Shown: positions 2,980-28,043 of the stretch, one piece after another
Layout: each line of letters opens with the position of its first letter
Position numbering within the stretch: position 1 is the stretch's first letter
DNA from: Gemmatimonadota bacterium
Lineage (GTDB): Bacteria; Gemmatimonadota; Gemmatimonadetes; JACCXV01; JAHWKZ01
Length of the DNA stretch: 35,787 nucleotides
NCBI GenBank assembly: GCA_035698825.1
Contig: DASSBK010000221.1
Span: forward strand, 1-35,787
Direction of reading: 5' to 3'
Position numbers and translations under genes: made by a program
Notes under the pieces: model-generated
The model's database searches: none
What the model was told of the DNA's origin: nothing
What the model saw: only the letters and a program-made list of their open reading frames with translations

Positions 2980-4308
2980 TCATCTGTCGGCGATGGCGTT
3001 CGCGCCGGTTTCCCGCCACCGCCCGCCCACACAGGTCGCGGCGATTGCGCGGTCACCCGAGCCGAACACCCAGGCGTCGAGAAGCGCCCCTTCGTCACAG
3101 TCCCGGAGCTCGGGGGCGTCGAGGTCGAGCGCGGTGAGGTCGGCCCAGTAGCCGCGCGCGATCGCGCCGGCCGGAATGTCGAGCGCGGCGGCGCCACCCT
3201 GCGTGGCGATCGCCAGGAGCGACCGCCCCACGCAGCCCTCTTCGTCGGCCAGGACGCCACGCTTCTCGCGGCGGAGCCGCTGGCCGTACTCCAGCCAGCG
3301 CATCTCCTCGCTCATCGCGATCCGCAGGTTGGAGTCCGTCCCCAGGCAGAGCCGATCCAGGTGACCCGTCGCATCCGCGAGATCGGGGATGCCGTCTCCG
3401 AGATTCGCCTCGGTCAGCGGGCAGATGCAGACCGAACCCCCCGCCGCGACGAAGCTCTCGAGGTGCTCGCGAGCGGTGTGTGTGCAGTGGACCGCCGTGA
3501 GGCCTTCGAGCGAGGAGAGCGACCGTGACAGCAACGCGATCGGCGGCTCGCCGTACGCGGCGATGCACTCCTCGATCTCGCCGCGCTGCTCCTCGACGTG
3601 CATGTGGACGGGCAGCGCGCGCCGGCGAGCCTCCGCATGGACGGCGGCCAGGTCGTCGAGAGTCGCCGCGCGGATCGAATGGGGCGCGACGCCGAGCGAC
3701 TGGGTCGCGGGATCGATGCGCTCGGCGATTCGATCGAACCGCTCCCAATACTTGGCGACCGATCCGACCGCGAACCGCCGCTGCGCGGGCCCGAGCGGCC
3801 GCCCGATCCCGCCCGTCTCGTAGTACGACTGCAGGAGGACGAGCCGGATCCCGACCTCCGCGGCCGCGTCGAGGACGACCGTGTCGAACGAGCCGTCCCT
3901 CTCGTCGGTGGCATGGTGGAGATAGTGGAACTCGCCGACCGCCGTGATCCCGGCGTCCCGCATCTCCCGGAAGGCACGCACGCAGAGATCGCGAAACCGG
4001 ACGGGGTCGAGGGATCCCACGAGCTCGTACATGGCGTCGCGCCAGGTCCAGAAGCTGCCGGCTCCGGACGAAAACCCTTCGGGGCGCCCCCGGAGGCCGA
4101 TCTGGAAGGCGTGGGAGTGGGCATCGACGAGACCCGGGACGAGCGCTCGGCGCGGGAGCCGCCGGGTGGGCGTCGCCTCGAGCGCGCCGACCGCTTCGAT
4201 GCGCCCGGCCTCGTCGATGGCGATCCGGACCCCGCGCTCGAATCGCGAGCCGGTCCACGTGAGATCGGCCTCGAGGACGGCAGCGGGGGTCAGGAAATCC
4301 TCTTGCAC
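2980..4308 (-). CDS. hutF: Formimidoylglutamate deiminase (amidohydrolase superfamily)
   Basis: Motifs AHSHAFQ, FWTWRDAMY, GEFHYLHH, APHSIRA, HMHVEEQ, CPLTEANLGDG and GTDSN. GTG start at 4308 inferred from overlap with the upstream gene; the longer ORF-track N-terminus is spurious. Confidence 0.85.
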   Translation of the reverse strand: MQEDFLTPAAVLEADLTWTGSRFERGVRIAIDEAGRIEAVGALEATPTRRLPRRALVPGLVDAHSHAFQIGLRGRPEGFSSGAGSFWTWRDAMYELVGSLDPVRFRDLCVRAFREMRDAGITAVGEFHYLHHATDERDGSFDTVVLDAAAEVGIRLVLLQSYYETGGIGRPLGPAQRRFAVGSVAKYWERFDRIAERIDPATQSLGVAPHSIRAATLDDLAAVHAEARRRALPVHMHVEEQRGEIEECIAAYGEPPIALLSRSLSSLEGLTAVHCTHTAREHLESFVAAGGSVCICPLTEANLGDGIPDLADATGHLDRLCLGTDSNLRIAMSEEMRWLEYGQRLRREKRGVLADEEGCVGRSLLAIATQGGAAALDIPAGAIARGYWADLTALDLDAPELRDCDEGALLDAWVFGSGDRAIAATCVGGRWRETGANAIADR

Positions 4309-5462
4309 CAGCGGTCCACCGCCCGGACGAGCGTGTCGTGCGCCGCCGCCAGGTCGGCGAGTGGGATGAACTCGTTCGCCCGATGGGCCACTTCGATCGA
4401 TCCCGGACCCCAGATCGCGCACTCGAACCCGAGGCGCTGGAGCCAGCCCGCGTCGGTGGCGAAGGACACGCTCTCCGCCGCGGGCGAGGACGGATGCATC
4501 GGCCGGGCGGCCTCGCCCTCGAGCCACTCCCAGAGGTCCGATCCTTCCTCGAGCTCCGCGGGCGGGCTCTCGGCCGTCATCTCGAGCCTCCACGTCGCGT
4601 GGCCGGCCGCGCGCTCGACCGCCTCGCGAACCCGCGCGACGAATTCTCCGGAGTTCATCCCGGGCAGGAGCCGCGCGCCGAGCTCGATCTCGCACCGGTC
4701 GGGGATCACGTTCGCCGCCGCGCCACCGTCGATCCGTCCGACGTTCAAGGCCGCGAACGGAACCTGGGGGAACGCGTTCGCGCGCGGCGGGCGCTCGCCT
4801 TCGAGAGCCCGCCGCAGCTCCTCCAGCGCGAGGACCACCCGCGCGGCGGGCTCGATCGCGCTCCGCCCGAGGTGCGGCAGTCCGCTGTGGGCGGCCTTCC
4901 CCTCGACGACGATGCGGACCCGCAGATGCCCCTTGTGGACCCGCGCGGGAACGAGCGAGGTCGGCTCGCCGACGATCGTGCGCCGGGGAAGCGGCTCGGG
5001 CGGCCCACCGGACTCGAAGAGCCTTCGTGCGCCGCGGGTGCCGACTTCCTCGTCGTAGGTGAACAGGAGCGCCAAGGGGCGGTCGAGGCGCTCGGGGTCG
5101 GCCTCCAGCAGCGTCCGGATCGCCAGAGCGAGGAATCCCTTCATGTCCGCCGTGCCCCGGCCGAAGATCGCGCCATCGCGCGGCGCCGCCTCGAAGGGAT
5201 CGGACTGCCACCCGGGTTCGAGCGCCGGCACGACGTCGGTGTGGCCGCAGAGGGTCAGGCCCTCCCGGTCCCCCCGCAGGGGACCGGCGACGATGGCGAG
5301 GTTTGCCTTCTCCCCGTTCTCCGACGGCATCCGGTGGATCCGCAGCCCGCGCCGGTCCAGGCATTCACAGACGAAATCGACGAGCGGGAGGTTGCTCCGC
5401 GAGCTGGTGGTGTCGAAGGCGACCAGGCGCTCCAGGATCTCGACGTCGGACAGACGCGGCAC
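4290..5462 (-). CDS. argE: M20-family deacylase, acetylornithine deacetylase-like
   Basis: Motifs LVAFDTTS, GHTDVVP, GRGTADMKGF, YDEEVG, VGEPT, GPGSIEVAHRANE. GTG start shares a base with the recQ stop (TAGTG). Confidence 0.8.
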   Translation of the reverse strand: MPRLSDVEILERLVAFDTTSSRSNLPLVDFVCECLDRRGLRIHRMPSENGEKANLAIVAGPLRGDREGLTLCGHTDVVPALEPGWQSDPFEAAPRDGAIFGRGTADMKGFLALAIRTLLEADPERLDRPLALLFTYDEEVGTRGARRLFESGGPPEPLPRRTIVGEPTSLVPARVHKGHLRVRIVVEGKAAHSGLPHLGRSAIEPAARVVLALEELRRALEGERPPRANAFPQVPFAALNVGRIDGGAAANVIPDRCEIELGARLLPGMNSGEFVARVREAVERAAGHATWRLEMTAESPPAELEEGSDLWEWLEGEAARPMHPSSPAAESVSFATDAGWLQRLGFECAIWGPGSIEVAHRANEFIPLADLAAAHDTLVRAVDRWCKRIS

Positions 5463-10644: not shown

Positions 10645-11157
10645 ATGCGCCCGGAAGCGGCTTCGGGCGCGGCGCTTCTCGCCCTCGCGCTCGCCTGCGG
10701 CTCGGAAGACCTCGCGCCGACCGTGCCGGAAGGGCCGGAGAGCCCGCAACCGATCGTGGGCCGGATCGGCGAGCTGGCCTTCTCCGCCGAGCTCCTCCAG
10801 CCCTCGTGGGATCGCCTCGTGGGGCGGATTACGCTGACCAATCCGACCGGCGCGCCGGTCGCGCTCCGGTTTCCCGATACCTGCGTCGTGCTCCTCCGCC
10901 TCTACCGTCTGGTCGACGAGCAGCGCGTCGTCGACGCCCACAGCAAGCGGTGTCAGCCGCTGCCGATCGACGTCACCCTGGGTCCCGGCGAGTCGCGCAC
11001 GTTCGAGACGAACGTGACGTTCTTCTTCGTTTTGGGAAACGAAATCCCCGAGGGGCGATACCGCGCGACCCTGTACCTGCGCCCCGATGGCTCCGGCGAG
11101 ATCGAGGTCGGCGTCGGGCTGCCGCGCCTCATCCGGCCGGACGAGGAGCAGGCGTGA
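10645..11157 (+). CDS. Putative lipoprotein with Ig-like domain (BsuPI-like pattern)
   Basis: Lipobox LALA-C and the pattern ITLTNPT..PV.L.F...TLGPGES. Alternative GTG start at 10609. Confidence 0.6.
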   Translation: MRPEAASGAALLALALACGSEDLAPTVPEGPESPQPIVGRIGELAFSAELLQPSWDRLVGRITLTNPTGAPVALRFPDTCVVLLRLYRLVDEQRVVDAHSKRCQPLPIDVTLGPGESRTFETNVTFFFVLGNEIPEGRYRATLYLRPDGSGEIEVGVGLPRLIRPDEEQA

Positions 11158-11984
11158 GGCCACGGCTCCTGGTCCCGAGCGCGGCGCTCTGCGCGATTCT
11201 CGCGCACGCCGTTGCTGCCTCCGGCCAGGACGTGGCGGTTCCGGGTCCCGAGACCGAGATCGTCGATCTCACGTATTCCTTCGGGCAGTCCACCCTCTAC
11301 TGGCCCACCGCGGAGCCCTTCGTGCTGGAGGTCGTGAGCGAGGGCGAGACGGAGTCGGGGTGGTACGCGGCGAAGTCCTTCTGCGCGGCGGAGCACGGAG
11401 GCACCCACCTCGACGCGCCGATCCACTTCGCCGAGGGCGGGCGCACGTCGGCCGAGATCCCGCTCGAGGACCTGATCGGAGACGCGGTCGTGATCGACGT
11501 GAGCGCGGCCGCGGCCGCCGACCGGGATCTCGAGATCGGAGTGGACGCTCTCGAGGCCTGGGAGTCCATGAACGGGGCGATCCCTGCGCGCGCGATTGTC
11601 CTCCTGCGAACGGGATGGGGCGAGCGCTGGCCCGACGCGGAGCGCTACCTGGGGACCGCGGCGCGGGGTCAGGAGGCCGTGGCCGACCTCCATTTCCCGG
11701 GTCTCTCGGGGGAAGGCGCCGCCCTCCTCGTCGAGCGGGGGGTCCGGGCGGTGGGAATCGACACCGCCTCGATCGATCGCGGTCAGTCGACGGAGTTTCG
11801 CGCGCACCGCGTCCTCGCCGCCGCGAACGTGCCCATCTTCGAGAACGTGGCGAATCTCGACCGCGTGGTCCTGCGCGGCGCCACCGTCGTCGCCCTGCCG
11901 ATGAAGATCGAGGCCGGCACGGGCGGGCCGCTTCGGATCGTCGCGCTCCAGCCCCTCTTTCTCCCCGGCGCTCCCGGTGAGTGA
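11154..11984 (+). CDS. Cyclase-family (kynurenine formamidase-like) metal-dependent hydrolase, likely exported
   Basis: Motifs HGGTHLDAPIHF, LLRTGW, HFPG, VGIDTASID, ENVANL, GTGGPLR. GTGA overlap with the upstream gene and a signal-like N-terminus. Confidence 0.85.
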   Translation: MRPRLLVPSAALCAILAHAVAASGQDVAVPGPETEIVDLTYSFGQSTLYWPTAEPFVLEVVSEGETESGWYAAKSFCAAEHGGTHLDAPIHFAEGGRTSAEIPLEDLIGDAVVIDVSAAAAADRDLEIGVDALEAWESMNGAIPARAIVLLRTGWGERWPDAERYLGTAARGQEAVADLHFPGLSGEGAALLVERGVRAVGIDTASIDRGQSTEFRAHRVLAAANVPIFENVANLDRVVLRGATVVALPMKIEAGTGGPLRIVALQPLFLPGAPGE

Positions 11985-12228
11985 CTCCGGCGGCGTCGTC
12001 GAACGCCGCATGGCGGGGCTCACCGTCCGGATCGATCGCCTCCTCTGCGTGGGCTTCGGAGACTGTATCGACGAGGATCCCGAGTCCTTCGAGCTGGACG
12101 GCGAGGGCGTGGCGGCCTTCCGCGATGCGGGCGGGGTCGACCGCGAGCGGATCGTGCGCGCCTGCGCCGCATGCCCGGTGGACGCCCTCACCGTCCTCGA
12201 CGGGGATGGAAGGCAGCTGGCGCCGTGA
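11977..12228 (+). CDS. Single-cluster ferredoxin, probably [3Fe-4S]
   Basis: IDRLLCVGFGDC...P..F.L...CAACPVDAL; overlaps both neighbouring genes. Confidence 0.8.
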   Translation: MSDSGGVVERRMAGLTVRIDRLLCVGFGDCIDEDPESFELDGEGVAAFRDAGGVDRERIVRACAACPVDALTVLDGDGRQLAP

Positions 12229-13118
12229 GCGGAGGATCCGAGCGCCGCCGGATCCGGACCTACCACGAGGTCGCCGATCCCGGAGCCGAATCGGTCGTCG
12301 GCCAGGTGGTCGAACAGCGTCGGCGGCTCCGGGAGCGGCTGGCGGGAGTGGGCCGGCTGGTCGCGGTCGGGAGCGGAAAGGGGGGCGTCGGGAAGAGCGC
12401 GATCAGCGCGAACGTCGCCGCGGCGCTGGCCGCGAGCGGCCGGGCGGTCGGCGCCCTGGACGCCGACCTGGACGGACCGTCGCTGGCGCGGATGCTGGGC
12501 GCCCGGGGCGGTCTGGCGCGCGGCGACAGCGGATTCCGGCCGGCGAGGGGGGCGGCCGGCGTCGGCGTCGTGTCGATGGATCTCCTGGTCGCGGAGGGCG
12601 CCCCCGTTCGGTGGCGCGGACCGGAGGAGCACCGGTTCGCGTGGCAGAGCGTGATCGAGACGGGAGCGCTCCGCGAGTTCCTGTCCGACGTCGAGTGGGG
12701 CGCGCTCGACGTCCTCGTCCTGGACCTGCCGCCCGGCACGGAAAAGCTCGCGCGCCTGATCGATCTCGTGGGATCCCCCGACGCCGTCCTCATCGTGACG
12801 ACTCCGTCCGAGGCCGCCCGCCACGTCGTGGCGAAGAGCGCGCGATTCCTCGAGGACGCCGGAGTCCGGGAAGTGGGGCTGGTGGCGAACATGGCGACCT
12901 GGAGCTGCCCGCACTGCGGCGTGGCCGAGCCCCTCTTCGCCGCCGACGGCGCCCGCCGGCTGGCGCGGGATTCCGGCCTCGAGCTCTGGGCCGAGGTGCC
13001 GTTCGACCCCCGGATCGCGGCCGACACCGACGAAGGCATGCCGATCGTGCTGAGTGCGCCCGAGCGCCCGGCGGCGCGCTCGCTCGCGGCGCTCGCCGAG
13101 CGGGTGGCGGCGCCGTGA
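12225..13118 (+). CDS. Mrp/NBP35 (ApbC-like) P-loop ATPase, Fe-S cluster carrier
   Basis: Motifs SGKGGVGKS, DADLDGPS, WGALDVLVLDLPPGT, VTTP and NM..CPHC. GTGA overlap start. Confidence 0.87.
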   Translation: MSGGSERRRIRTYHEVADPGAESVVGQVVEQRRRLRERLAGVGRLVAVGSGKGGVGKSAISANVAAALAASGRAVGALDADLDGPSLARMLGARGGLARGDSGFRPARGAAGVGVVSMDLLVAEGAPVRWRGPEEHRFAWQSVIETGALREFLSDVEWGALDVLVLDLPPGTEKLARLIDLVGSPDAVLIVTTPSEAARHVVAKSARFLEDAGVREVGLVANMATWSCPHCGVAEPLFAADGARRLARDSGLELWAEVPFDPRIAADTDEGMPIVLSAPERPAARSLAALAERVAAP

Positions 13119-13564
13119 AATTTCTCTGCATCGGGTGCGACGCGGTGATGGATTACGTGGAGCGGCGGCTCCCCGGAGACGGGACGATGGCCGTCGTCTA
13201 CGCCTGTCCGGCCTGCGGCAAGGAGACCGCGATGCTCGCCAACCCGATGGAGACGCGCCTCGTCAGCGGCCTGGGGATCGAAGTGGGCGGCAGGAGCGTG
13301 CCGCCCGAGCCGCTCGAGCTCGTGCGGTCCTCCGTCGAGGGGCTCGAGGAGCGGGCCGAGGGAGTCGCCGAAGCGGCGCCTCCACGTCCGGGCGGGGTGC
13401 GCTGGAGCGAGGACGCGCGGGAGCGGCTCATGGCGGTGCCCTCGTTCGTCCGGGGGATGGTCAAGCGGATCTACGGCGAGTACGCGGCCGAGCGCGGCAT
13501 CGAGGAGATCACGCCGGAGATCATGGATCGCGCCCGCTCCGAGCTGGGACTGGAGGGGATGTAG
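13115..13564 (+). CDS. Zn-ribbon (CxxC...CxxC) protein with C-terminal PCP_red-like (BchB C-terminal-like) module
   Basis: VKFLCIGC...YACPAC, then VRWSEDARERLMAVPSFVRGMVKRIYGEYAAERGIEEITPEIMDRAR. GTGA overlap with mrp. Confidence 0.78.
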   Translation: MKFLCIGCDAVMDYVERRLPGDGTMAVVYACPACGKETAMLANPMETRLVSGLGIEVGGRSVPPEPLELVRSSVEGLEERAEGVAEAAPPRPGGVRWSEDARERLMAVPSFVRGMVKRIYGEYAAERGIEEITPEIMDRARSELGLEGM

Positions 13565-13582
13565 CGCGCGGGTGGAAGTCGT

Positions 13583-13611
13583 TTGACACGTTCCCCCACC
13601 GTTTTTATATA
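13583..13611 (+). promoter_or_regulatory. Possible sigma70-type promoter for the USP-to-cox transcription unit
   Basis: Perfect TTGACA at 13583-13588 and an AT-rich TTTATATA about 16-17 bp downstream in otherwise GC-rich DNA. The -10 element is imperfect. Confidence 0.45.
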
Positions 13612-13670
13612 GGGGCGTCGCACAGGCAGGAACCGCCCTTGCAGTCGATTTCCCTTCGAAATCGGGTGGC

Positions 13671-15764
13671 ATGTATCGAGAGATCCTCGTACCGGTGGAC
13701 AACTCCGAGCACTCCGACTGGGCCGTCGACCGCGCGATCGAGATCTGCCGCCGCTCGGGCGGCCGCGTCACCGGCAACCACGTCTACGCCGCCCGCCTCC
13801 ACGACGTCCGCTTCCGCCAGCTCGAGACCGGCCTCCCCGCACAGTTCCAGACCCCCGACGAGATCAAGCGCCAGCGGAAGATCCACGACAAGCTGATCGA
13901 GAAGGGCCTGCAGCTGATCTCCGACAGCTTCCTCGACCAGGTCGAGAAGCGCTGCGCGGCCGTGGGGGTGCCGGTGACGCGGCAACTCCTCGAGGGGATC
14001 AACTACGAGGAGCTGGTGCGCGAGGCGAACCGGGGCGAGGGCCGGCTTCCGAGCCTGATCGGCTTCGACCCCAACATCGCCGACAAGTACGACGGTGGCG
14101 CCACGGTGCGCGGCGACGTGCGCCTGGGGGAGGACGGCAGGATCATCGCCGAGGAAGAGGACGCCGACGAGAAGCTCGCGGGCAGCTCGGGCAGGAGCTA
14201 CGACCTGGTGGCGATCGGGGCGCACGGCCTCGGCAGGCAGCCCCTGAGCCAGCTGGGCGGGGTGGTGGCGCGCGCGATCCGAGGCATCGAGAAGGACGTC
14301 CTGATCGTGCGGGACGACCGCCCGCTCGAAGGCGGTCGCTTCCTCGTCTGCGTGGACGGCTCGGCCTACTGCTACAAGGCGATGCGCGTGGCGCTGGAGA
14401 TGGCGCGGGAATTCGGCGCGAAGCTCTACGTGGCGAGCGCGTTCGACGTCGAATACCACCACGTCGTCTTTCACAACATCAAGGACGTCCTCTCGGTCCA
14501 GGCCTCGAAGGTGTTCAAGTTCGAGGAGCAGGAGGAGCTCCACAACAACATCATCGACAAGGGCCTCCTGCGGCTCTGTCAGGCGAACCTCAAGCGCGCC
14601 GAGGTCATGGCCGCTGAGTATCCCGACATCGCGATCGAGACGCAGATCCTGATCGGCAAGCCGTTCCAGGTCGTCCTCCAGTGGGCGGAGGAGATCGAGC
14701 CCTCCCTGCTCGTGGTCGCGCGCCACGGGAGCCATCGCATCGACGGGACGGATCTGGGGTCCCAGGCGGACAACCTGAGCCGCATCGCGACGGTGAACAC
14801 GCTGCTGGTAGGCACCACCGCGGTCCATCCCGAGGAGATCCCGTGGATCGAGGAGGACGGCGAGACGGGCCTCGAGTGGTCGCCGGACGCCGAGGTCCGG
14901 ATCCTGCGGGTTCCGCCGTTCGCGCTCGGCATCGCGCGCAAGGCCGTCGAGGAGTACGTGCTGGAGCGGTACGGCGCCGCGGTCGGCGCTGGAGCCGGCG
15001 GGAACGGAAACGGCAACGGAACCGTGCCTGCCGACGGGAACGGGCACGCGCCGTCGAACGGGGACGGAAGACCGCGCGGCCTGCCGACCGTCACCGGCGA
15101 GCGGCTGGACGAGGCGATCCAGAAGCTCCTGCCGACCCACATGCAGCTCATCATGGGAATCGGCACGGCCGAGGAGCTCGCGCTGGCCGAGATCAAGGCC
15201 GAGGAGGCGATGAAGCGGACGCTCGTCGAGGGCAGCGACGTGGACGACGCTCCCGCGGTGCGCATGGTGACGGCGAAGTGTCCGTACACGGGGCACGTGC
15301 AGGAGCGGGAGTGGACGGAGAAGGACCCGGTCGTGTGGACGGGAGAAGCGTTCGAGCGACTGCGTCTGGTGCCGCTCATCGCGCGGCCGCTGGCCCGGAA
15401 CACGGTCGAGCGCTTCGCCCGCGATCACGCCATGTGGCGGATCACGACCCGGGTGATGGACGAGAACAAGCAGGCGATGATCGAGGCCGACGAGTTCGAC
15501 GTCGACACGATGCTGGTGATGTTCAAGGAGCTCCAGACCAAACAGCTCAGGGCCGCCGCGGAGGGCGTGGACGGACTGACGCCCGAGATGCGCCGATTCA
15601 TCGACGAGGCGAAGGCCGCCGGCGTCACTCGCTGCCCCATCCGGGACATCGAGAAGCAGATCGACAAGTGCCCGGTCGATTTCAAGGCCGCCACGCCCGC
15701 CGAGGCCAAGGCGGCCGTCGAGGCCTTCCTGAATTCCGCCGCAGCCGCGGAGGACGCCCCATAG
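13671..15764 (+). CDS. Tandem universal stress protein (USP) domain protein with two PCP_red-like modules and three Cys-Pro motifs
   Basis: USP motifs ILVPVDNSEHS...DLVAIGAHG...DVLIVR and FLVCVDGS...LLVVARHG...LGSQA. PCP_red-like LEWSPDAE..RVPPF and VVWTGEAFERLRLVP. Motifs KCPY, RCPI and KCPVDF. Confidence 0.8.
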   Translation: MYREILVPVDNSEHSDWAVDRAIEICRRSGGRVTGNHVYAARLHDVRFRQLETGLPAQFQTPDEIKRQRKIHDKLIEKGLQLISDSFLDQVEKRCAAVGVPVTRQLLEGINYEELVREANRGEGRLPSLIGFDPNIADKYDGGATVRGDVRLGEDGRIIAEEEDADEKLAGSSGRSYDLVAIGAHGLGRQPLSQLGGVVARAIRGIEKDVLIVRDDRPLEGGRFLVCVDGSAYCYKAMRVALEMAREFGAKLYVASAFDVEYHHVVFHNIKDVLSVQASKVFKFEEQEELHNNIIDKGLLRLCQANLKRAEVMAAEYPDIAIETQILIGKPFQVVLQWAEEIEPSLLVVARHGSHRIDGTDLGSQADNLSRIATVNTLLVGTTAVHPEEIPWIEEDGETGLEWSPDAEVRILRVPPFALGIARKAVEEYVLERYGAAVGAGAGGNGNGNGTVPADGNGHAPSNGDGRPRGLPTVTGERLDEAIQKLLPTHMQLIMGIGTAEELALAEIKAEEAMKRTLVEGSDVDDAPAVRMVTAKCPYTGHVQEREWTEKDPVVWTGEAFERLRLVPLIARPLARNTVERFARDHAMWRITTRVMDENKQAMIEADEFDVDTMLVMFKELQTKQLRAAAEGVDGLTPEMRRFIDEAKAAGVTRCPIRDIEKQIDKCPVDFKAATPAEAKAAVEAFLNSAAAAEDAP

Positions 15765-15765
15765 G

Positions 15766-17136
15766 GTGAGCGCGACACCGCCATTCGGGGCCGTGTCGGC
15801 GGATCGGGCCGCGCCGCGCAGGGACTGGGAAACGGACGTCGCGGTGCGCGCGGCGGGACCGGAGTTCGTGCCGCACGTCGTCGCCTGGAACCTGACCCGC
15901 CGCTGCAACCTCGAGTGCGCTCACTGCTACATCGCGGCGGGCGCCTGGCACGCCGCCGCGGAGGAGATGTCGACCGCGGACTGCCTGAGGGTCGTGGACG
16001 AGATCCTCGCGGTGAGCCCCGCCCCGATGCTGATCCTGAGCGGCGGTGAGCCCTTGCTTCGCGACGACCTGGAGACGATCGCCCGGCGGGCCGCCGACGG
16101 GGGCGCGACGGTGGTCGTGGGAACGAACGGCACGCGCCTCACGCCGGCCCGCATCGACTCGCTGAAGGCGGCGGGCGTCCGTGGCGTGGCGGTCTCGATC
16201 GACAGCCTCGACGGCGATTACCACGACCGCTTCCGCCACGGTGCCGGATCGCTGGACGAAACGCTGGCCGCGATCGAGCGGCTGCGCGAGGCGCGGCTCG
16301 ATTTCGTGGTCCAGACCACCGTGACGCGCGGCAACCGCCACGAGATCGCGCGCCTCGTGGCCTGGGCGGCGGAGAAGGGCGCGGTCTCGTTCAACTGCTA
16401 CTTCGTTGTGGCCACCGGTCGCGCGTCCGGGATGCGCGGGCTCTCGCCTCGCGAGAACGACGAGGTCCTGGCCGAGCTGGTGGCGCTGGGGAAGGCGTAT
16501 CGGGGCCGGATGATGGTGCGCTCGAAGTGCCAGCCCCAGATCATGCGCCACGCGTATGCCGGCGATCCGGAATCGGGACTCCTCGACTACGCCACGCGTT
16601 GCCCGTGCGGCGTTCAGTACTGCCGCATCACGCCCGACGGAAAGGTCACGCCCTGCCCCTACATGCCGGTCGAGGCCGGAGATCTGGCGAGCGCGAGCTT
16701 CGGAGAGATCTGGCGCGAGTCGCGGGTCTTCCGCGAGCTCCGCGCGACGGAGCTCGGCGGACGCTGCGGACGATGCGAGTTCCGGATCGTGTGCGGGGGC
16801 TGCCGGGCGCGCGCCTACGCGGAGGAGGGGGACTGGCTGGCGGAGGACCCCGCCTGCTCGTACGAGCCGACCGGACGGGTCCCGGTCGTGGAGCCGCGGC
16901 TCGTGGCCCATGGCGCGCCGGCGGAGCGGACGCTTGCGTGGAGCGCGGCGGCCCGGGAGCGGATGGGCCGCGTCCCCGGCTTCGTGCGCGCCGTCGTGAC
17001 CGCCCGCGTGGAGAAATACGCCGCGGAACGGGGATACCCAATCGTCACCGAAGACGTGATCGACGAGGTGCGCTCGGCGCTGCCGATCGACTTCGCCAAG
17101 AGGAAGCCGTTCTTCCTCGGGAAGGACCCGTCGTGA
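15766..17136 (+). CDS. Radical SAM/SPASM protein of the NirJ/AhbC/AhbD type with C-terminal PCP_red-like module
   Basis: VAWNLTRRCNLECAHCY, SGGEPLLRDD, GTNG, SIDS; SPASM CPCG..YC..PCP...CGRCEFRIVCGGCRARA...DPAC; tail LAWSAAARERMGRVPGFVR. Confidence 0.85.
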   Translation: MSATPPFGAVSADRAAPRRDWETDVAVRAAGPEFVPHVVAWNLTRRCNLECAHCYIAAGAWHAAAEEMSTADCLRVVDEILAVSPAPMLILSGGEPLLRDDLETIARRAADGGATVVVGTNGTRLTPARIDSLKAAGVRGVAVSIDSLDGDYHDRFRHGAGSLDETLAAIERLREARLDFVVQTTVTRGNRHEIARLVAWAAEKGAVSFNCYFVVATGRASGMRGLSPRENDEVLAELVALGKAYRGRMMVRSKCQPQIMRHAYAGDPESGLLDYATRCPCGVQYCRITPDGKVTPCPYMPVEAGDLASASFGEIWRESRVFRELRATELGGRCGRCEFRIVCGGCRARAYAEEGDWLAEDPACSYEPTGRVPVVEPRLVAHGAPAERTLAWSAAARERMGRVPGFVRAVVTARVEKYAAERGYPIVTEDVIDEVRSALPIDFAKRKPFFLGKDPS

Positions 17137-18887
17137 CCCGGCGCCGGCTCGGCACGGCCGCGACGTGCGTCGCGTCGCTGGCGCTGGTGCTCGTGGCGGT
17201 CCACGTGGCGGGCGCGCAGGAGCCGGCGGTCGTCGGGCCGCGCGAGTACGGCTCGTTCCCGTGGATCGGCAGCCGGACCGCCGTCTGGATCGCGGCCGAG
17301 GTGCATCTCATGTTCGCCGCCTTCGTCCTCGGCGTGCCGATTTTCGCGGTCGCGGCCGAAGGCATCGGGATCTTCGGCGGGGACGAGCGCTACGATCGCC
17401 TGTCCAAGGAGTTCACGCGGCTCCTCCTCATCGCTTACAGCGCAACCGCGATGTGGGGTGCCGTCCTGGTCTTCTTCCTGACCACGCTCTACCCGCGGTT
17501 CTGGGCCCACATGACGGAGATCTTCGAGGTCTCGATGTGGATCTACGTGGGTCTGTTCTTCGTCGAATCATTCACGCTCTATCTCTACTACTACGGCTGG
17601 GACCGCTGGAAGCACGGGCGCGCGAAGATCGGGCACTGGACGCTGGGGATCCTGCTCAACCTCTGGGGCACCGCGGTCCTGTTCATCGCCGACAGCTGGC
17701 TCACGTACATGATGAGCCCGCCGGCGACAGTCACGCCCGACACCTCGCCGGCCATGGTCCAGTTCTGGAGCGCCTTCGCCAACGCCACCTGGATGCCGAT
17801 CAACATCCATCGGCTGATCGCCAACGTGGTTTTCGGCGGCTCGGTGGTGGCGGCCTATGCCGGCTACCGCTTCCTCTCCTCGCGCACGGACGAGGAGCGC
17901 GCGCACTACGACTGGATGGGCTACGTCGGCAACCTGATCGCCATCGGCGCCCTGATCGTGCTGCCCTTCGCCGGCTACTACCTGGGCCGCGAGATCTACG
18001 AGTACAACCAGCAGATGGGCATCACGATGATGGGCGGCTTCATGTCCTGGCTGTGGATCATCCAGGCGTTCCTGATCGGGGTCCTGTTCCTGGCGGGCAA
18101 CTACTACCTCTGGGTGGGGATGGGACGGATTCCGGGAGCGGAGCGCTTCCTACCCTACACGAAATGGATGCTGCTGGTCCTGATCATCGGCGTGATCGTG
18201 TGGTCGACGCCGCACACGATGATCGCCGACAGGGCCGAGCTCGAGGCGATGGGCGGCTCTCACCATCCGTTCCTCGGCGTCCTGGGCGTCATGAGCGCCA
18301 AGAACACCGCCGTCAACCTCATGATCCTGACGACGTTCCTTTCGTTTCTGCTGTACCGCCGGGCGAACCGGCGACCGGTCGTGTCGTGGACGCGGACGGG
18401 AACGATCCTCCAGGCCGGGCTGTTCATGATCGCGGCCGCGGTGGTCCTCTTCTACGGAGTGTACGGCTACTTCGTGAGCGCGATCGTCCGGATCGGGTTC
18501 AGCGTGTATCAGGTGCTGGCGGTCCTGGCCACGATCGTGGGGGTGATGGCGATCGACGTGGCGATGCTGCGGGGGTCGGAATCGCGCGGTGCGATCCGCT
18601 GGGGCCAGATGCCGCCGCGCTCCCAGTACGCGCTGTTCGTCCTGGTCGTCACGTTCACCTGGCTCATGGGCCTGATGGGGTTCGCGCGGAGCGGCATCCG
18701 CCAGCACTGGCACGTGTGGGAGGTCATGCGGGACACGAGCGAATGGGCCGCGACTCCCGCGCTGGGATACGCGGCGCAGATCATCAGCGTCTGCGTCCTC
18801 ATCTTCCTGGGGCTGATCTCGTTCATCTTCTGGCTGGGCGGGCTGGTCGAGAAGCCCCAGCTCGTCCCCAAGTCCGGAGACCGCTGA
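17133..18887 (+). CDS. CydA-like ('cytochrome bd-like') multipass membrane protein
   Basis: CydA-type N-terminal half: VHLMFAAFVLG, ERYDRLSK, FFVES...YYYGWDR, GHW, YMMSP, IHRLIA. C-terminal MGFARSGIRQHW resembles CydA GRQPW. About 13 hydrophobic segments. Confidence 0.75.
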   Translation: MTRRRLGTAATCVASLALVLVAVHVAGAQEPAVVGPREYGSFPWIGSRTAVWIAAEVHLMFAAFVLGVPIFAVAAEGIGIFGGDERYDRLSKEFTRLLLIAYSATAMWGAVLVFFLTTLYPRFWAHMTEIFEVSMWIYVGLFFVESFTLYLYYYGWDRWKHGRAKIGHWTLGILLNLWGTAVLFIADSWLTYMMSPPATVTPDTSPAMVQFWSAFANATWMPINIHRLIANVVFGGSVVAAYAGYRFLSSRTDEERAHYDWMGYVGNLIAIGALIVLPFAGYYLGREIYEYNQQMGITMMGGFMSWLWIIQAFLIGVLFLAGNYYLWVGMGRIPGAERFLPYTKWMLLVLIIGVIVWSTPHTMIADRAELEAMGGSHHPFLGVLGVMSAKNTAVNLMILTTFLSFLLYRRANRRPVVSWTRTGTILQAGLFMIAAAVVLFYGVYGYFVSAIVRIGFSVYQVLAVLATIVGVMAIDVAMLRGSESRGAIRWGQMPPRSQYALFVLVVTFTWLMGLMGFARSGIRQHWHVWEVMRDTSEWAATPALGYAAQIISVCVLIFLGLISFIFWLGGLVEKPQLVPKSGDR

Positions 18888-19687
18888 TGTGGGGCACGAA
18901 CCTCCGGGTCCTCGCCGTCGTGCTGGGGACCGTCGCGGCTTACACGCTGCTGGCCAACGCGATCCCGCAGGTCGAGTCGGAGGTCCCCGAGGAGCTGACG
19001 TTCACCGGCGACGTGAGCCCCGAGCAGCTGATCGAGGCCGGGGAGGAGCTGTTCAACGGGGCCGGCGGATGCACGGCCTGCCACGGGCTCGGCACGCGGG
19101 CGCCGAACCTGCTGACCGATCAGGGCGGACTGGGCGCGATCGGCGCGCGCTGCGGACAACGCGTCGAGGGCGAGGACTGCAAGGCCTATCTGCACCAGTC
19201 GATGGTCGATCCGAACGCGTACGTGGTGGAGGGCTTCCAGCCGATCATGCCGGACATGTCGCGCACGCTGTCGGAAGCGCAGATCTGGTCGATGATCGCA
19301 TTTCTGCAGAGCCAGGGCGGGGAGGTAACCGTCACCGCCGCCGATCTGCAGGCGGCGGCCGAAACGGAGCCCGGCGCGGCGGCGGGGACGGCGGCCACGG
19401 CCGGTACCGGCCCCAGCGCGACCACCGACCCCGTGGCCCTCATCCAGGAGCTCCAGTGCCTCGCCTGCCACAAGCTGGGCGCGGAGGGGCAGGAGGTGGG
19501 GCCGCACTTCGACGGCATGGGCTCGCGTCTGTCGCCCGACGAGATCCGGCAGGCGATCCTCGATCCCGCGGCCTCGGTCTCGCCGGGCTTCGAGCAGTTC
19601 GCCGGGGTGATGCCGCCGAACTTCGGCTCGCGGCTGACGGCCTCGCAGCTCGAGGCGATCGTCGGCTTCCTGGCGGCGCGGAAGTGA
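18887..19687 (+). CDS. Membrane-anchored diheme c-type cytochrome
   Basis: N-terminal TM segment, CTACH and CLACH each followed by an MP motif (IMPD, VMPP). TGATG coupling. Confidence 0.88.
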   Translation: MWGTNLRVLAVVLGTVAAYTLLANAIPQVESEVPEELTFTGDVSPEQLIEAGEELFNGAGGCTACHGLGTRAPNLLTDQGGLGAIGARCGQRVEGEDCKAYLHQSMVDPNAYVVEGFQPIMPDMSRTLSEAQIWSMIAFLQSQGGEVTVTAADLQAAAETEPGAAAGTAATAGTGPSATTDPVALIQELQCLACHKLGAEGQEVGPHFDGMGSRLSPDEIRQAILDPAASVSPGFEQFAGVMPPNFGSRLTASQLEAIVGFLAARK

Positions 19688-19697: not shown

Positions 19698-20489
19698 GTG
19701 AGGCTCCTGCGCCATCCGTTCTGGCAGGCGGTCGCGATCCTGGTGATCGCCTACCTCCTGATCACCTACGGGATCCCGTACCTGCCCGCGCTGATTGGCA
19801 TGGAGAGCGCCCCGGTTCCCGGATCGGTCGTGCTGCAGTACATGGCGACCGTGCTGGTGGGGGTCCTGATCTGGGTCAGCGACAGCGACGAGCGGTGGAA
19901 CCGATTCCTGGAGCCGATCCGATCGACGATGGTCGACGGCAACAGGCGCTGGCTGCGGCTCGGGCTCATGGTCGCGATCCCGCTCCTGGTCGGGCTGCTC
20001 GCCTTCCGTCAGGTGCGGCAGACGGTCGCCGCACCGCCCGCCCTGCGCTCGATCCACCCCGCGCCCCCCTCGTCGATCACGTTCCGCGGTCGGCCGCTGA
20101 ACCTCGCGGGGCTCGACAACCCGCTCCGGGGGGACGGCTCGATCACGGAAGACTACGAGGAGGGCAAGCGGGTCTACTATCAGAATTGCCTCCCCTGCCA
20201 CGGCGATGGGCTCGACGGGCGCGGCCATTTCGCGCACGGCTTCACACCGGCCCCGCTGCCGTTCAACGACTCCGGCACGATCCCGCAGCTGACCGAGAGC
20301 TTCGTATTCTGGCGGATCGCCAAGGGCGGCCCGGGCCTCCCCAAGGAGGGAACGCCCTGGAACAGCGCGATGCCGGTCTGGGAGGAGATCCTCACCGAAG
20401 AGGAGATCTGGTCGGTCATCGTCTTCCTCTACGAGCAGACCGGCGCGACTCCCCGCACGTGGGCAGAGGCCGGGGAGGGGGCTGAATGA
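19698..20489 (+). CDS. Membrane-bound monoheme c-type cytochrome with three N-terminal TM helices
   Basis: Three hydrophobic segments, then YYQNCLPCHG and SAMPVW. Confidence 0.85.
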   Translation: MRLLRHPFWQAVAILVIAYLLITYGIPYLPALIGMESAPVPGSVVLQYMATVLVGVLIWVSDSDERWNRFLEPIRSTMVDGNRRWLRLGLMVAIPLLVGLLAFRQVRQTVAAPPALRSIHPAPPSSITFRGRPLNLAGLDNPLRGDGSITEDYEEGKRVYYQNCLPCHGDGLDGRGHFAHGFTPAPLPFNDSGTIPQLTESFVFWRIAKGGPGLPKEGTPWNSAMPVWEEILTEEEIWSVIVFLYEQTGATPRTWAEAGEGAE

Positions 20490-22129
20490 GGTTTCCGGCG
20501 CGCATGGCTTGGCCCCTGCTGGCGGCCCTCTTCGTGGCGCCCGCGTCCGTGACCGCGCAGGACTCCCAGACCGGGAAGGCGGAGTACGACCGGTGGTGTG
20601 CCGGCTGTCACGGCGTGGACGGCAAGGGGGATGGCCCGGGTGCCGGGACGATGATGCCGCGGCCGCGCGACTTCACGACCGGCCGCTACCAGATCCGCTC
20701 GACGCCGAGCGGCGCGCTCCCCACGGACGAGGACCTCACGAGTGTGATCCTGGACGGGATGCCCGGCACCGCGATGCCCGGATGGCGGGACCACTTCGGC
20801 GAGCGCGAGGTGCAGGAACTGGTCGCCCACATCAAGTCGTTCTCGCCGTTCTTCGAGAGCCAGCCGGCCCCCGAGCCGGTGGAGATCGTGTCGGCTCCCG
20901 GAGCGGACGATGCGGCGCTCGCGGAGGGTCGGGAGTTCTACGAGAAGATCGAGTGCAACAAGTGCCACGGCGAGGCGGGCAGAGGGGATGGTCCGTCGGC
21001 GCCCACGCTCGAGGACGACGACGACCGGCCGATACGCGCCGCCGATCTCACCGAGAACTGGTTCTTCAACGGCGGGGGGTCGGTGGAGGAGATCCACGAG
21101 CGTCTGGTCACGGGCCTCAACGGAACGCCGATGCCTTCGTTCCAGGACCTGATCGCCGCCGAGTTCATGACCGAGGAGCAGTTATGGCACGTGGCGCAGT
21201 ACGTCCGGAGCCTGGCGCCCGAGGAGCCCCCGGTCGTGCGGGAGGTCGTTCGCGCCGGGCGGGTGGAGGGCGATCTGCCGGCGTCGGTGGACGACGCCGC
21301 ATGGGAGACCGCCGAGCGCTTCTACGTGCCGCTCGTCGGACAGGTAATCGCCCGCCCGCGCTGGTTCTCGCCCACCGTGGACGGCGTATGGGTCCAGGCG
21401 CTTCACAACGGTCGAGAGCTGACGATGCGCCTCGTGTGGCACGACCCGTCGGAAAGCCCCGATCCGGACTGGGACGAGTGGCGGGACAAGGTGCTCGCGC
21501 TGATGGCGTTCGCCGACGCGCCGGTCGCGGAGTCGCCCGATTCGGCCGCCGCCGAGGCACCGGCGGAGTCCGCGCCGGGGGGCGGGGCCGATACGACGGC
21601 GGTCGCCGCCGCCTCGCCGGGGGCACCCTTCCCGGACGCGTTGGTGGTTCAGTTCCCGCGCTCCATCCCCGAGGGCATGGAGCGGCCCTATTTCCTCATG
21701 GGCGACGATCGCGATCCGGTGTATCTCTGGCGCTGGGAAAGCGGACGGCAGGCGAGCGAGATGCTGGCGCGCGGGCTGGCGAGGTACGAGCCTCTCGGCG
21801 GCGCCCAGGCCGGAGCCGTGACGGCCGAGGCCGTGTTCGACCAGGGCGAGTGGCGACTCATGCTGCGCCGGACGATGGACGCGGAAGGAGTCGCGGATCG
21901 CCTCGGCTTCGAGCCAGGGCGCGCGATCCCGATGGCGCTGTTCGCGTGGGACGGGTCCAACGGAGAGACGGGAACGCAAGGGGCGATCGGAAGCTGGTAT
22001 TTCCTGTACCTGGATCAGCCGACGGCGAGCACCGTGTACGTGACGCCGGTCCTGGCGACGCTGTTGACTGCGGCGCTGGGCGTGGTGTTGGTCAGGCGGG
22101 CGCAGCGGCGCGCGCGAAACGATGCGTAG
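20486..22129 (+). CDS. Diheme cytochrome c fused to an ethylbenzene-dehydrogenase-gamma (EbdC/DOMON)-like domain, with C-terminal membrane anchor
   Basis: Signal peptide; CAGCHG...PRPRDF...GMPGTAMP; CNKCHG...GTPMP; then VQALHNG..L.WHDP, DALVVQFP, PYFLMG, GEW...R, AWDG; C-terminal TM followed by RR. Confidence 0.82.
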   Translation: MRFPARMAWPLLAALFVAPASVTAQDSQTGKAEYDRWCAGCHGVDGKGDGPGAGTMMPRPRDFTTGRYQIRSTPSGALPTDEDLTSVILDGMPGTAMPGWRDHFGEREVQELVAHIKSFSPFFESQPAPEPVEIVSAPGADDAALAEGREFYEKIECNKCHGEAGRGDGPSAPTLEDDDDRPIRAADLTENWFFNGGGSVEEIHERLVTGLNGTPMPSFQDLIAAEFMTEEQLWHVAQYVRSLAPEEPPVVREVVRAGRVEGDLPASVDDAAWETAERFYVPLVGQVIARPRWFSPTVDGVWVQALHNGRELTMRLVWHDPSESPDPDWDEWRDKVLALMAFADAPVAESPDSAAAEAPAESAPGGGADTTAVAAASPGAPFPDALVVQFPRSIPEGMERPYFLMGDDRDPVYLWRWESGRQASEMLARGLARYEPLGGAQAGAVTAEAVFDQGEWRLMLRRTMDAEGVADRLGFEPGRAIPMALFAWDGSNGETGTQGAIGSWYFLYLDQPTASTVYVTPVLATLLTAALGVVLVRRAQRRARNDA

Positions 22130-22166
22130 GGTTGTCGCGAACCGAATCAAACCAAGGAGGACGCTG

Positions 22167-23021
22167 ATGAGACATTCGATCGAGGCGCTGGCCGCGAGCT
22201 TGCTGGTCGTCGCGCTAGCCTGCGGCGGTGGCGGCGAGGAGGCGGACACCGGGGGAGACGTAGCGGTGGACGAGGAGGCGGGGCCCGCCGTCAGCCCGGA
22301 CAGCGCGGCGACGATTACGGGCGTCGTGAACTTCACCGGCACCGCGCCGGCCGGGGAGCCCATCGACATGAGCGAAGAGCCGACGTGCGCGGAACAGCAC
22401 ACCGAGCCGCCCATGAGAATGCAGGTCGTTGCGGCGGACGGAAAGCTCGCCAACGTCTTCGTGTACGTGAAGGAGGGGTTGGGTGACCGCCGATTCCCGG
22501 TCTCGCAGGAAGGGGTCACGATCGACCAGCGGGGCTGCGAGTATCATCCGCACATCATCGCCATCCAGACGGGACAGGATCTGATCGTCAAGAATTCCGA
22601 CGGGATCCTGCACAACATCAACACGCAGCCGTCCGTGAATCAGGGCTTCAACGTGAGCCAGCCGGTGGCGATGGAGACCACCAAGACGTTCACGTCCCCC
22701 GAGGTGATGATTCCCGTGAAATGCGACGTGCACGGGTGGATGGAGGCCTTCATCGGCGTGCAGGACCATCCGTACATGGCGGTGAGCGGCGCGGACGGAA
22801 CGTTCACGCTCGAGAACCTGCCGCCGGGCACGTATACCATCGAGGCCTGGCACGAGCTGTACGGCACCCAGACACAGACCGTCACCGTCGCGGCCCAGGG
22901 GACGGGTCAGGTCACGTTCGACTACTCGAGCGATATGGCGGGCAACCCGGTGCCGATGGGGGATCCGATCGACCTCCACGAGCACGACGGGCACGTCCGG
23001 GTCGCGTCCGCGGGCCGGTAG
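22167..23021 (+). CDS. Lipoprotein with cupredoxin-like domain and carboxypeptidase-regulatory-like beta-sandwich
   Basis: AAGGAGG SD; lipobox ALA-C; IDQRGCEYHP, NSDGILHN and KCDVHGWM (type-1 Cu-like His/Cys/His/Met); GTFTLENLPPGTYTIEAWHE. Confidence 0.8.
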   Translation: MRHSIEALAASLLVVALACGGGGEEADTGGDVAVDEEAGPAVSPDSAATITGVVNFTGTAPAGEPIDMSEEPTCAEQHTEPPMRMQVVAADGKLANVFVYVKEGLGDRRFPVSQEGVTIDQRGCEYHPHIIAIQTGQDLIVKNSDGILHNINTQPSVNQGFNVSQPVAMETTKTFTSPEVMIPVKCDVHGWMEAFIGVQDHPYMAVSGADGTFTLENLPPGTYTIEAWHELYGTQTQTVTVAAQGTGQVTFDYSSDMAGNPVPMGDPIDLHEHDGHVRVASAGR

Positions 23022-23048: not shown

Positions 23049-23840
23049 ATGGACTGGGGCTGGTTGATGTCGGAGCCGGCTTCGACGTTCGGCTCCAAGA
23101 TCGACTCCATCTACTATGTGATCCTGGTGATCACAGGGGTGATCTTCGTGCTCGTGGAGGGCGCGCTGATCGTGTTCCTGTTGAAGTACCGGCACCGCGA
23201 GGGTCGGCGGGCGGAATACTCCCATGGACACACCAAGCTGGAGGCGGTGTGGACGATCATCCCCTTCATCCTCGTCATGGCGATCGCCTGGATGAGCATG
23301 GATGTGTGGCTCGAAGCGAAGATCGCGGATGGCCATGCGCCGGCGGACGCACTGCCGCTGCGCGTGACGGCGAAGCAGTTCGAGTGGAATGTCACCTATC
23401 CCGGGCCCGACGAGAAGCTCGACACCCCCGACGACTTCGTGAAGAGGAACCAGCTCCACCTTCCTGTGGGCAGGGCCGTGAGGGTCGACCTGGCCAGCGA
23501 GGACGTGATCCACTCGTTCTTCCTGCCTGTGTTCCGGGTGAAGCAGGACGCGGTACCCGGCATGGTGATTCCGGTGTGGTTCGAGGCGACGAAGGCGGGT
23601 GAGTACCCGCTGGGCTGCGCCGAGCTGTGCGGTCTCGGCCACTACCGGATGCGCGGCTCGGTCACCGTGCACGAGGCGGCGGCGTTCGACTCGTGGGTCG
23701 CTGAGGAGGGATCGGCGCCGGCCGCGGAGACGCCGGCGCCCGCGGACACCACCGGTGGCGGGGCCGAGGCAGCCGAAGCCGCCGCGGCCCCGGGCCACGA
23801 TCATCAGCAACCATCCAGCGAAGGAGAGGGGCGGGCATGA
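23049..23840 (+). CDS. coxB: Cytochrome c oxidase subunit II (CuA, no fused cytochrome c)
   Basis: Two TM helices, LEAVWTIIP, QFEW, DVIHSF and CAELCGLGHYRM. Confidence 0.93.
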   Translation: MDWGWLMSEPASTFGSKIDSIYYVILVITGVIFVLVEGALIVFLLKYRHREGRRAEYSHGHTKLEAVWTIIPFILVMAIAWMSMDVWLEAKIADGHAPADALPLRVTAKQFEWNVTYPGPDEKLDTPDDFVKRNQLHLPVGRAVRVDLASEDVIHSFFLPVFRVKQDAVPGMVIPVWFEATKAGEYPLGCAELCGLGHYRMRGSVTVHEAAAFDSWVAEEGSAPAAETPAPADTTGGGAEAAEAAAAPGHDHQQPSSEGEGRA

Positions 23841-26244: not shown

Positions 26245-26248
26245 TCAG

Positions 26249-28034: not shown

Positions 28035-28043
28035 GATCTCCCG

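Follow-up and report, generated by a model that had tools for sequence, protein, structure and literature searches.

A PCP_red-bearing radical SAM cassette beside a cytochrome bd-like gene in a Gemmatimonadota genome may encode an AhbD-type coprohaem decarboxylase

The window described here is a stretch of 35,787 nucleotides with ~70% G+C (contig DASSBK010000221.1, our C221) from a soil Gemmatimonadota metagenome-assembled genome (MAG) of 2.78 Mb, which is 96% complete and is called G000 below. At 11977-17136 its + strand carries a cassette of five genes for a ferredoxin, an Mrp-type ATPase, a Zn-ribbon protein, a tandem universal stress protein (USP) and a radical SAM/SPASM enzyme (SAM, S-adenosylmethionine), and the last of these overlaps the start of a cytochrome bd-like gene. 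We propose, with a probability of about one half, that the cassette encodes a SAM-dependent coprohaem decarboxylase of the AhbD type that needs neither O2 nor H2O2, has its own Fe-S and electron helpers and serves the oxidase complex. The five co-oriented genes and the GTGA overlap of the radical SAM stop codon with the beginning of the bd-like gene had been noticed in a preliminary description made from the DNA letters alone. Gene calls based on third-position G+C (GC3) frame analysis, open reading frame (ORF) translations and Pfam agree with the gene set, and the overlap can be read from the sequence at 17133-17136.

The radical SAM enzyme (456 aa, 15766-17136, +) combines a radical SAM core (PF04055, E 4.1e-28) and a SPASM part (PF13186, E 2e-9) with a C-terminal PCP_red domain. 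Its top NCBIfam families are NirJ2 (TIGR04055, 288.6 bits), which is the counterpart of AhbD in Firmicutes, and the haem b synthase AhbD itself (TIGR04545, 288 bits), and the alignment spans the whole of both models, with the cut-off of 500 bits reached in neither case. TIGR04053 comes third (254 bits, cut-off 395), followed below their cut-offs by NirJ (TIGR04051, 183.9 vs 515), AhbC (TIGR04546, 152.3 vs 650), NirJ1 (TIGR04054, 142.4 vs 650) and the peptide maturases MftC (121.9 vs 265) and PqqE (115.1 vs 381). The enzyme is thus NirJ/Ahb-like, as had been claimed, and the family comparison that the preliminary description had proposed puts it nearest to AhbD and NirJ2, with AhbC, NirJ, PqqE and MftC far lower. 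When the whole genome was searched with the AhbD profile, the window enzyme scored 288.9 bits and the next best match 89.8 bits; a second AhbD-like radical SAM gene was not found in G000 by this search. The CX3CX2C motif (C47, C51, C54) is invariant in 47 sequences (alignment A5), as are eight more cysteines at 255, 279, 297, 334, 337, 343, 346 and 364, and the cysteine complement of the SPASM part would suit two auxiliary [4Fe-4S] clusters.

A HMMER search against 1.84 billion representatives returned 875 matches at E 1e-30 or better. Among the 56 nearest of these, Pfam assigned PCP_red to 25 (some with two or three copies) and found 16 fused to AhbA/B-type siroheme decarboxylase domains. One of the 56, P0244, a member of TIGR04053, is a natural fusion of the radical SAM enzyme to ferrochelatase. 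Since PCP_red-, AhbA/B- and ferrochelatase-bearing relatives all occur among the representatives scanned, the neighbours of the enzyme in sequence space are haem enzymes. In a quick-mode IQ-TREE tree of the catalytic core, with 69 rows and rooted on 4 putative AhbC-like rows of unchecked identity, one clade of 27 rows (SH-aLRT 98) unites the window enzyme with all 21 PCP_red rows and with 5 that are unlabelled. This clade adjoins the NirJ2-labelled rows with weak support (SH-aLRT 87), and more distant PCP_red enzymes occur in clusters labelled Nitrospinota, Binatia and Nitrosomonadales. The window enzyme resembles AhbD and NirJ2 in its radical SAM core, in a SPASM part with cysteines for two auxiliary clusters, in its place in the same superclade and in that its probable substrate, coprohaem, is available in G000. 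It differs from them in its low score and separate clade, in the PCP_red tail, which was not found in the AhbD-, NirJ2- or TIGR04053-labelled representatives scanned, and in its dedicated USP, Zn-ribbon, Mrp and ferredoxin partners, which lie with it in oxidase operons and not with ahbABC.

The PCP_red domain (PF08369) links three of the five cassette proteins, with one copy in the Zn-ribbon protein, two in the USP protein and one in the radical SAM enzyme. The three proteins score 55.9, 54.6 and 46.1 bits (cut-off 32.5). The four matches in G000 all lie inside the cassette (one of them, at 25.4 bits, is below the cut-off), and because no match falls outside it the genome has no BchB. The cassette proteins share with the C-terminal domain of BchB/ChlB a PF08369 match above the cut-off and a fold that superposes on 2kru and ChlB 2ynm_D; they differ in that the cassette has no nitrogenase-like catalytic core and carries PCP_red on a radical SAM enzyme, a USP protein and a Zn ribbon instead. 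In BchB the protochlorophyllide cavity is covered by the C-terminal helix, according to a passage in PMC4071322, and from the matched model positions this helix would be the Pfam PCP_red domain. That such a domain sits on a haem-type radical SAM enzyme and two partners suggests a general tetrapyrrole-binding or docking role. To our knowledge, the only description of PCP_red so far is of a tail on a chlorophyll enzyme.

The Zn-ribbon protein (149 aa, 13115-13564, +) has its PCP_red domain at residues 97-141 (E 4.2e-15). Its AlphaFold2 model (mean pLDDT 77) matches best the PCP_red structure 2kru, solved by nuclear magnetic resonance, with TMt 0.76 and a root mean square deviation of 1.2 over 53 columns, and 2l09 and ChlB 2ynm_D are the other top folds. 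The second-best match, 2l09 (asr4154 of Nostoc), is a small stand-alone cyanobacterial protein with the PCP_red fold, so that the domain also occurs on its own and apart from BchB. The motif MKFLCxxCD...CxxC is invariant in 46 sequences (alignment A3), and the N-terminal part shows a weak likeness to the NrdR zinc ribbon in the fold search. A rubredoxin identity was considered for this 4-Cys domain and rejected, given the weak Pfam matches to zinc ribbons (E 0.03-0.3) and the NrdR-like fold match. The USP-PCP_red protein of one locus (L152:6392-8299) additionally has a rubredoxin-like domain (PF21349), the sole locus where it was called. In that lineage the 4-Cys module appears to be fused to the USP protein, with no separate Zn-ribbon-PCP_red gene. 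The tandem USP protein of the window (697 aa, 13671-15764, +) has two stretches of PF00582 (E 2.8e-29) and two of PF08369 (E 1.1e-14), the latter encoded at 14877-14969 and 15336-15470.

The first two genes of the cassette encode the putative Fe-S and electron helpers. The ferredoxin (83 aa, 11977-12228, +; PF13459 Fer4_15, E 1.3e-9) is of the single-cluster type and was found in 63 of 80 genome loci, where its gene precedes mrp or follows the Zn-ribbon gene. The Mrp/NUBPL-type P-loop Fe-S carrier ATPase (PF10609, E 2.9e-64, 217 bits) ends at 13118 on the + strand and likely starts at a GTG at 12225 that overlaps the stop codon of the ferredoxin gene; taken as the longest ORF, it would begin at 12171. 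Its translation contains a deviant Walker A motif, GKGGVGKS, and CPHC, and it reaches neither of the NCBIfam equivalog cut-offs (MrpORP 195 bits vs 450, ApbC 157 vs 348). A predicted complex of an Mrp dimer with the Zn-ribbon-PCP_red protein (score 0.00, mark 0.32), modelled without controls, has no bearing on binding either way.

The cassette is closely tied to the bd-like gene. A linkage sample comprised 80 genome loci with the enzyme, all with matches that reach PCP_red and many of them cut by contig ends, and 74 also contain a bd-like gene. The other six have Acidobacteriota or Thermoanaerobaculia titles. The genomes behind five of these six were searched and each has a bd-like gene; it lies on the same contig just upstream in L082 and L072 and ~14 kb upstream in L073. 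The order in L082 and L072 is bd-like, cytochromes, USP, GNAT-like gene, Mrp, Zn-ribbon and radical SAM. The weakly GNAT-like gene between the USP and Mrp genes of this Acidobacteriota-type order lies at L082:5158-6339 and L072:4640-5731. In an even sample of 151 Gemmatimonadota genomes, orthologues of the enzyme (E < 1e-160) and of the bd-like gene (E < 1e-270) each occurred in 41, and these were the same 41 genomes with the two genes adjacent in every one; the other 110 had neither. Nine further genomes contain only a relative of the enzyme with ~40% identity and no PCP_red. As related genomes are not independent, these counts are descriptive and do not amount to a test. Still, the conserved cassette tied to bd-like and cytochrome genes that had been postulated from the window is real, and the contrary outcome named at the time, a cassette generally unlinked from bd-like genes, is not what the genome loci contain.

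Further loci were taken from metagenomes, where a sample of 80 included 45 with a match reaching PCP_red. A bd-like gene was found in 15 of the 45, in varied orders and orientations (e.g. L114, L122, L125, L166 and L171); among the 30 without one, only 4 are flanked by 8 kb or more on both sides. Across loci the constant core consists of the USP-PCP_red and radical SAM-PCP_red genes, often with a CarboxypepD_reg-like gene, a homologue of which adjoins the USP-PCP_red gene in L114, L116, L143 and L152. The tandem USP gene was present in 75 of the 80 genome loci and in 28 of the 45 metagenome loci. Mrp and Zn-ribbon genes are gained or lost jointly and are adjacent, and their start/stop overlap is kept in most loci. 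COX1 was found in 53 of the 80 genome loci. In the metagenome locus L143 the pair of core genes comes after a COX operon with CtaA and a UbiA-family (CtaB-type) gene among its members, and in L152 it comes after COX1, COX3 and COX4 genes. A HemY-family oxidase gene (TIGR00562, 230-252 bits, cut-off 97.85) stands directly after the radical SAM-PCP_red gene in L114, L116 and L120.

Two of these metagenome loci have further neighbours of their own. L116:1-12666 carries arsenite-oxidase-like genes (a Rieske_3 and a molybdopterin subunit) and HEAT-repeat, CarboxypepD_reg-like and FGE-sulfatase-like genes, followed by USP-PCP_red, radical SAM-PCP_red and HemY; a HEAT-repeat protein is encoded at the same place in L114. 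In L109:6354-13120 the genes immediately upstream of the pair encode a UbiE-type methyltransferase and a B12-binding radical SAM protein, and no oxidase gene was found within 10 kb of the pair.

The genome can provide the substrate. Contig C218 of G000 contains a cluster with ferrochelatase, HemE, HemL, a ChdC-like gene and HemB; the ChdC-like gene has HemQ_actino as its best family (142 bits vs a cut-off of 235), and two HemY-family genes of the genome score above the cut-off. From this gene content G000 can make coprohaem by the coproporphyrin-dependent route, and it already has a peroxide-type enzyme for the last step. Because HemE, two HemY-type genes, ferrochelatase and a ChdC-like gene are all present, the genome's supply of haem b does not depend on the radical SAM enzyme alone. 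An AhbA/B-type gene (PF17805) was matched neither in G000 nor in 7 related genomes. The preliminary description had seen a lone radical SAM enzyme in a window without ahbA/B-type, nirS, nirF, haem A synthase or haem O synthase genes. Among the window ORFs scanned there is indeed no ahbA/B-type, haem A or haem O synthase gene, and the lack of AhbA/B extends to the genome, while for nirS and nirF no genome-wide search was made; CtaA and CtaB are encoded on contig C164, outside the window. The search of the genome for haem genes that had been suggested thus recovered HemE, ferrochelatase and a ChdC-like gene and failed to recover ahbAB. At 33683-35787 the + strand of the window itself carries genes for glutamyl-tRNA reductase (hemA) and, truncated where the window ends, porphobilinogen deaminase (hemC), in the vicinity of the oxidase genes.

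Of the 41 cassette genomes 36 have a ChdC-family gene, compared with 25 of the 110 others (which include the unpublished G101), and in relatives ChdC is often encoded on the contig of the cassette at a distance of ~10 kb. This enrichment may reflect a shared substrate, and kinship would fit it equally well. We considered whether the enzyme replaces ChdC in the 5 of 41 cassette genomes that have no ChdC and dropped the argument. In these five genomes HemF and ferrochelatase were found in none, HemN was never above its cut-off (best 84-124 bits vs 325), and HemE is absent from three and partial or weak in two (G113 and G153). Because ferrochelatase and HemE are missing or weak as well, the haem cluster of these genomes is most likely unassembled.

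With these elements the cassette can be read as follows. Gene and domain content, family placement, the haem genes of the genome, linkage and co-occurrence are observed; from them we infer which substrate the enzyme uses and which product it forms, what Mrp, ferredoxin, PCP_red and USP do, and that low oxygen comes into play. Coprohaem would be supplied by the coproporphyrin-dependent route. The radical SAM/SPASM enzyme, with its radical SAM cluster and two auxiliary clusters, would carry out the oxidative decarboxylation of two coprohaem propionates to vinyls and so give haem b, which is the same decarboxylation that the ChdC-like enzyme would perform with peroxide. Mrp would load the three Fe-S clusters of the enzyme. 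Electron transfer to or from the enzyme would fall to the ferredoxin, and perhaps also to the Zn-ribbon protein with its four cysteines. The PCP_red domains could join the enzyme to the Zn-ribbon and USP proteins, or cover the tetrapyrrole in the way the C-terminal end of BchB does, and the tandem USP part might couple activity to the nucleotide or energy state. The haem would be made for, or passed to, the oxidase complex when oxygen is scarce; since the genes are co-inherited with bd-like, cytochrome c, EB_dh and COX genes, the oxidase complex is its probable destination. We favour the ordinary conversion of coprohaem to haem b because the nearest families are AhbD-type, the closest relatives outside the PCP_red clade are fused to AhbA/B-type domains or to ferrochelatase, and HemY is the next gene in three loci.

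There is some precedent for such an arrangement. A passage in PMC13564367 describes a lone AhbD in some prokaryotes that have the coproporphyrin-dependent pathway and none of the other enzymes of alternative haem biosynthesis, and states that it may act anaerobically, while an oxygen-independent counterpart of ChdC is termed 'yet unknown' in a passage of PMC10965808. The cassette enzyme would share with ChdC/HemQ the step from coprohaem to haem b and the same genome. The two differ in fold and chemistry, which are unrelated: ChdC requires H2O2 (PMC10965808), and the radical SAM enzyme would not. The PCP_red clade offers a concrete candidate, outside Firmicutes, for the oxygen-independent final reaction in the coproporphyrin-dependent pathway, and a widespread one, with members in Gemmatimonadota and Acidobacteriota and in records that bear the labels Nitrospinota, Binatia and Nitrosomonadales. 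Literature searches on bd-like genes with radical SAM enzymes, on AhbD and on PCP_red/PF08369 returned no paper on the module, with the supplements of the bd-superfamily preprint falling outside their coverage.

Several observations weigh against a coprohaem decarboxylase. Firstly, in the tree the AhbD and TIGR04053 rows form a clade of their own (SH-aLRT 98), separate from the PCP_red clade. In an NCBIfam scan of 105 representatives at a threshold of E 1e-105, none of the 24 PCP_red-bearing ones matched any family, whereas the remaining ones matched AhbD, NirJ2 or TIGR04053. Because the enzyme is below every curated cut-off and outside the AhbD-labelled clade, another reaction on a related substrate is possible. 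The same placement, together with the ChdC-like route in the genome, speaks against a housekeeping AhbC or AhbD, an outcome that the preliminary description had considered fatal to its own proposal. Secondly, a ChdC-like gene is present wherever the late haem pathway is detectable in a cassette genome, and for this reason the enzyme is never the sole candidate for the last step. Thirdly, the enzyme is missing from all 25 genomes that have ChdC but no bd-like gene, whereas a general anaerobic backup for ChdC would predict it in some of them; kinship weakens this count. The rationale of low oxygen, moreover, is conjectural. Lastly, no bd-like gene was found within 8-10 kb of the enzyme in the well-flanked loci L104, L109, L110 and L116. 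The tie to bd-like genes that had been claimed is therefore strong but not universal, with these four loci without the gene and two others beside COX/CtaAB.

The absence of the enzyme from those 25 genomes keeps alive a second explanation, which we consider unlikely but worth retaining, namely that the enzyme makes a specialised haem for the active site of the bd-like (or COX) protein, e.g. a partly decarboxylated coprohaem or a haem with otherwise modified side chains, and that the PCP_red proteins pass this cofactor to the membrane complex. The strict co-occurrence of enzyme and bd-like gene fits it (all 41 cassette genomes, none of the 110 others), although inheritance as one block could give the same pattern. 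The linkage survives several gene orders and at least two phyla, but the pair is also found by COX/CtaAB, before HemY or with no oxidase nearby, which better suits a general haem step. Further points in its favour are the separate clade of the enzyme, its scores under all curated cut-offs, the ChdC-like gene that already covers haem b in 36 of the 41 genomes and the confinement of PCP_red to the cassette within the genome. Against this, the nearest families are haem b synthases, and there is no known family of such a kind for comparison. A specialised haem was half of what the preliminary description had proposed, and it has gained no direct support, given the AhbD-type families nearest to the enzyme and the relatives fused to AhbA/B or ferrochelatase.

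We regard as rather improbable a more elaborate scheme in which PCP_red is a portable tetrapyrrole-handling domain and the enzyme, USP and Zn-ribbon proteins form a hand-over chain that takes up coprohaem and inserts what is made from it, a non-b haem or an ATP- or USP-gated haem b, directly into an oxidase of the OR-N type, with Mrp acting on its PCP_red partners as BchL does on BchNB. BchB works with the SIMIBI-class ATPase BchL, and a parallel to the Mrp of the cassette can be drawn. If this scheme were true, the module would be devoted to maturing the cofactors of an entire family of oxygen reductases that are still uncharacterised.

Very doubtful is the other half of the earlier proposal, a post-translational modification, in which a SPASM-type maturase would act on a protein or peptide (an oxidase subunit or the Zn-ribbon protein) with PCP_red as the recognition domain. 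The AlphaFold2 model of the enzyme (pLDDT 88, pTM 0.85; PCP_red at ~390-440 with pLDDT 86-96) finds its best solved folds in the SPASM peptide maturases PqqE, SkfB, CteB and SuiB. This agrees with the SPASM architecture, but the solved-structure matches include no AhbD or NirJ structure, and the preference for peptide maturases only reflects this. The invariant N-terminus and four invariant cysteines of the Zn-ribbon protein would suit a modified substrate. However, the peptide-maturase scores are far under those of AhbD and NirJ2 (MftC 122 and PqqE 115 vs 288), the sequence neighbours are haem enzymes and the adjacency of HemY would be unaccounted for, and nothing in our results points to such a modification. 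Most improbable of all is a stress or hypoxia regulatory unit in which USP is a nucleotide sensor and the radical SAM enzyme, with its partners, controls oxidase assembly or expression without making a cofactor: the tandem USP gene does accompany the radical SAM gene in most loci, and a sigma-54 regulator and a PAS histidine kinase are encoded nearby in L072 and L114, but the invariant radical SAM motif and eight further cysteines point to an active enzyme, and Pfam found no DNA-binding domain in the cassette proteins.

The presumed recipient of the haem, the bd-like subunit I (584 aa, 17133-18887, +), is the only PF01654 member in the genome (71.6 bits, cut-off 26.2). A crude hydropathy plot gives it 12-13 hydrophobic segments, compared with the 14 stated for OR-N1 and OR-N2 in the OR-N preprint (10.1101/2021.01.16.426971). 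Members of the OR-N family are characterised by CydA homology, the lack of a quinol site and 10 or 14 helices according to subfamily. To judge from the main text of that preprint by Murali, Gennis and Hemp, OR-N oxygen reductases are divergent CydA homologues with genes for cytochrome c and electron donors in their operons. The bd-like gene of the window resembles them in being a divergent CydA homologue with cytochrome c and electron-donor genes in its operon. The words 'radical' and 'Gemmatimonad' are absent from the main text of the preprint, the supplements of which may list operon partners. Three Gemmatimonadota genomes have a second bd-like paralogue with ~49% identity, matched in two pieces (G064:C8:63790-65727, G090:C93:128-2056 and G131:C1:2114064-2115980), and no second radical SAM gene. 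As far as we know, bd-like (OR-N) oxidases are frequent in soil and marine bacteria and their cofactors and assembly are not known. Genes inherited together with these oxidases open a direct way to study them by experiment.

Downstream of the bd-like gene the same strand encodes a dihaem cytochrome c (266 aa, 18887-19687; CxxCH at residues 62 and 191), a membrane-anchored monohaem cytochrome c (19698-20489; PF13442, E 3.4e-8; one CxxCH and 3 hydrophobic segments) and a fusion of a dihaem cytochrome c with an EB_dh haem b domain (20486-22129; PF13442 in two stretches, PF09459 E 1.4e-15), which scores 92 bits for TIGR03477, below the cut-off. A CarboxypepD_reg-like protein (22122-23021; PF13620, E 3e-10) and, in the same orientation, COX2 and COX1 of a haem-copper oxidase (23049-25627; PF00116/PF02790 and PF00115, E 3.3e-153) follow.

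Within the cassette, GTGA overlaps also join ferredoxin to Mrp (12225-12228) and Mrp to the Zn-ribbon gene (13115-13118). The sole real intergenic gap, 106 bases at 13565-13670, divides the cassette into two blocks and may be the start of a USP/radical SAM/bd-like transcription unit. By direct reading this gap is richer in A+T and contains TTGACA-N17-TATATA; a consensus promoter scan of it called 0 sites, with 0.9 expected. Upstream of the ferredoxin gene lies a gene for a putative cyclase (10806-11984, +). It was considered as a member of the module and rejected, since it is found with the cassette in the closest relatives (L006-L009) and not beyond them.

The shares of sequence words found in sequence archives were 0.09 (a metatranscriptome) and 0.07 (possibly an RNA run), values that are small and were not used as evidence. 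Two ORFs on the + strand, 3529-5058 and 25698-26399, have a coding-like G+C pattern and no Pfam family, and the latter has COX1 on one side and a COX4-like gene on the other. The - strand at 27714-32196 holds another haem-copper oxidase operon, with COX2 fused to cytochrome c followed by COX1, COX3 and COX4, and the window therefore encodes two COX sets in addition to the bd-like gene.

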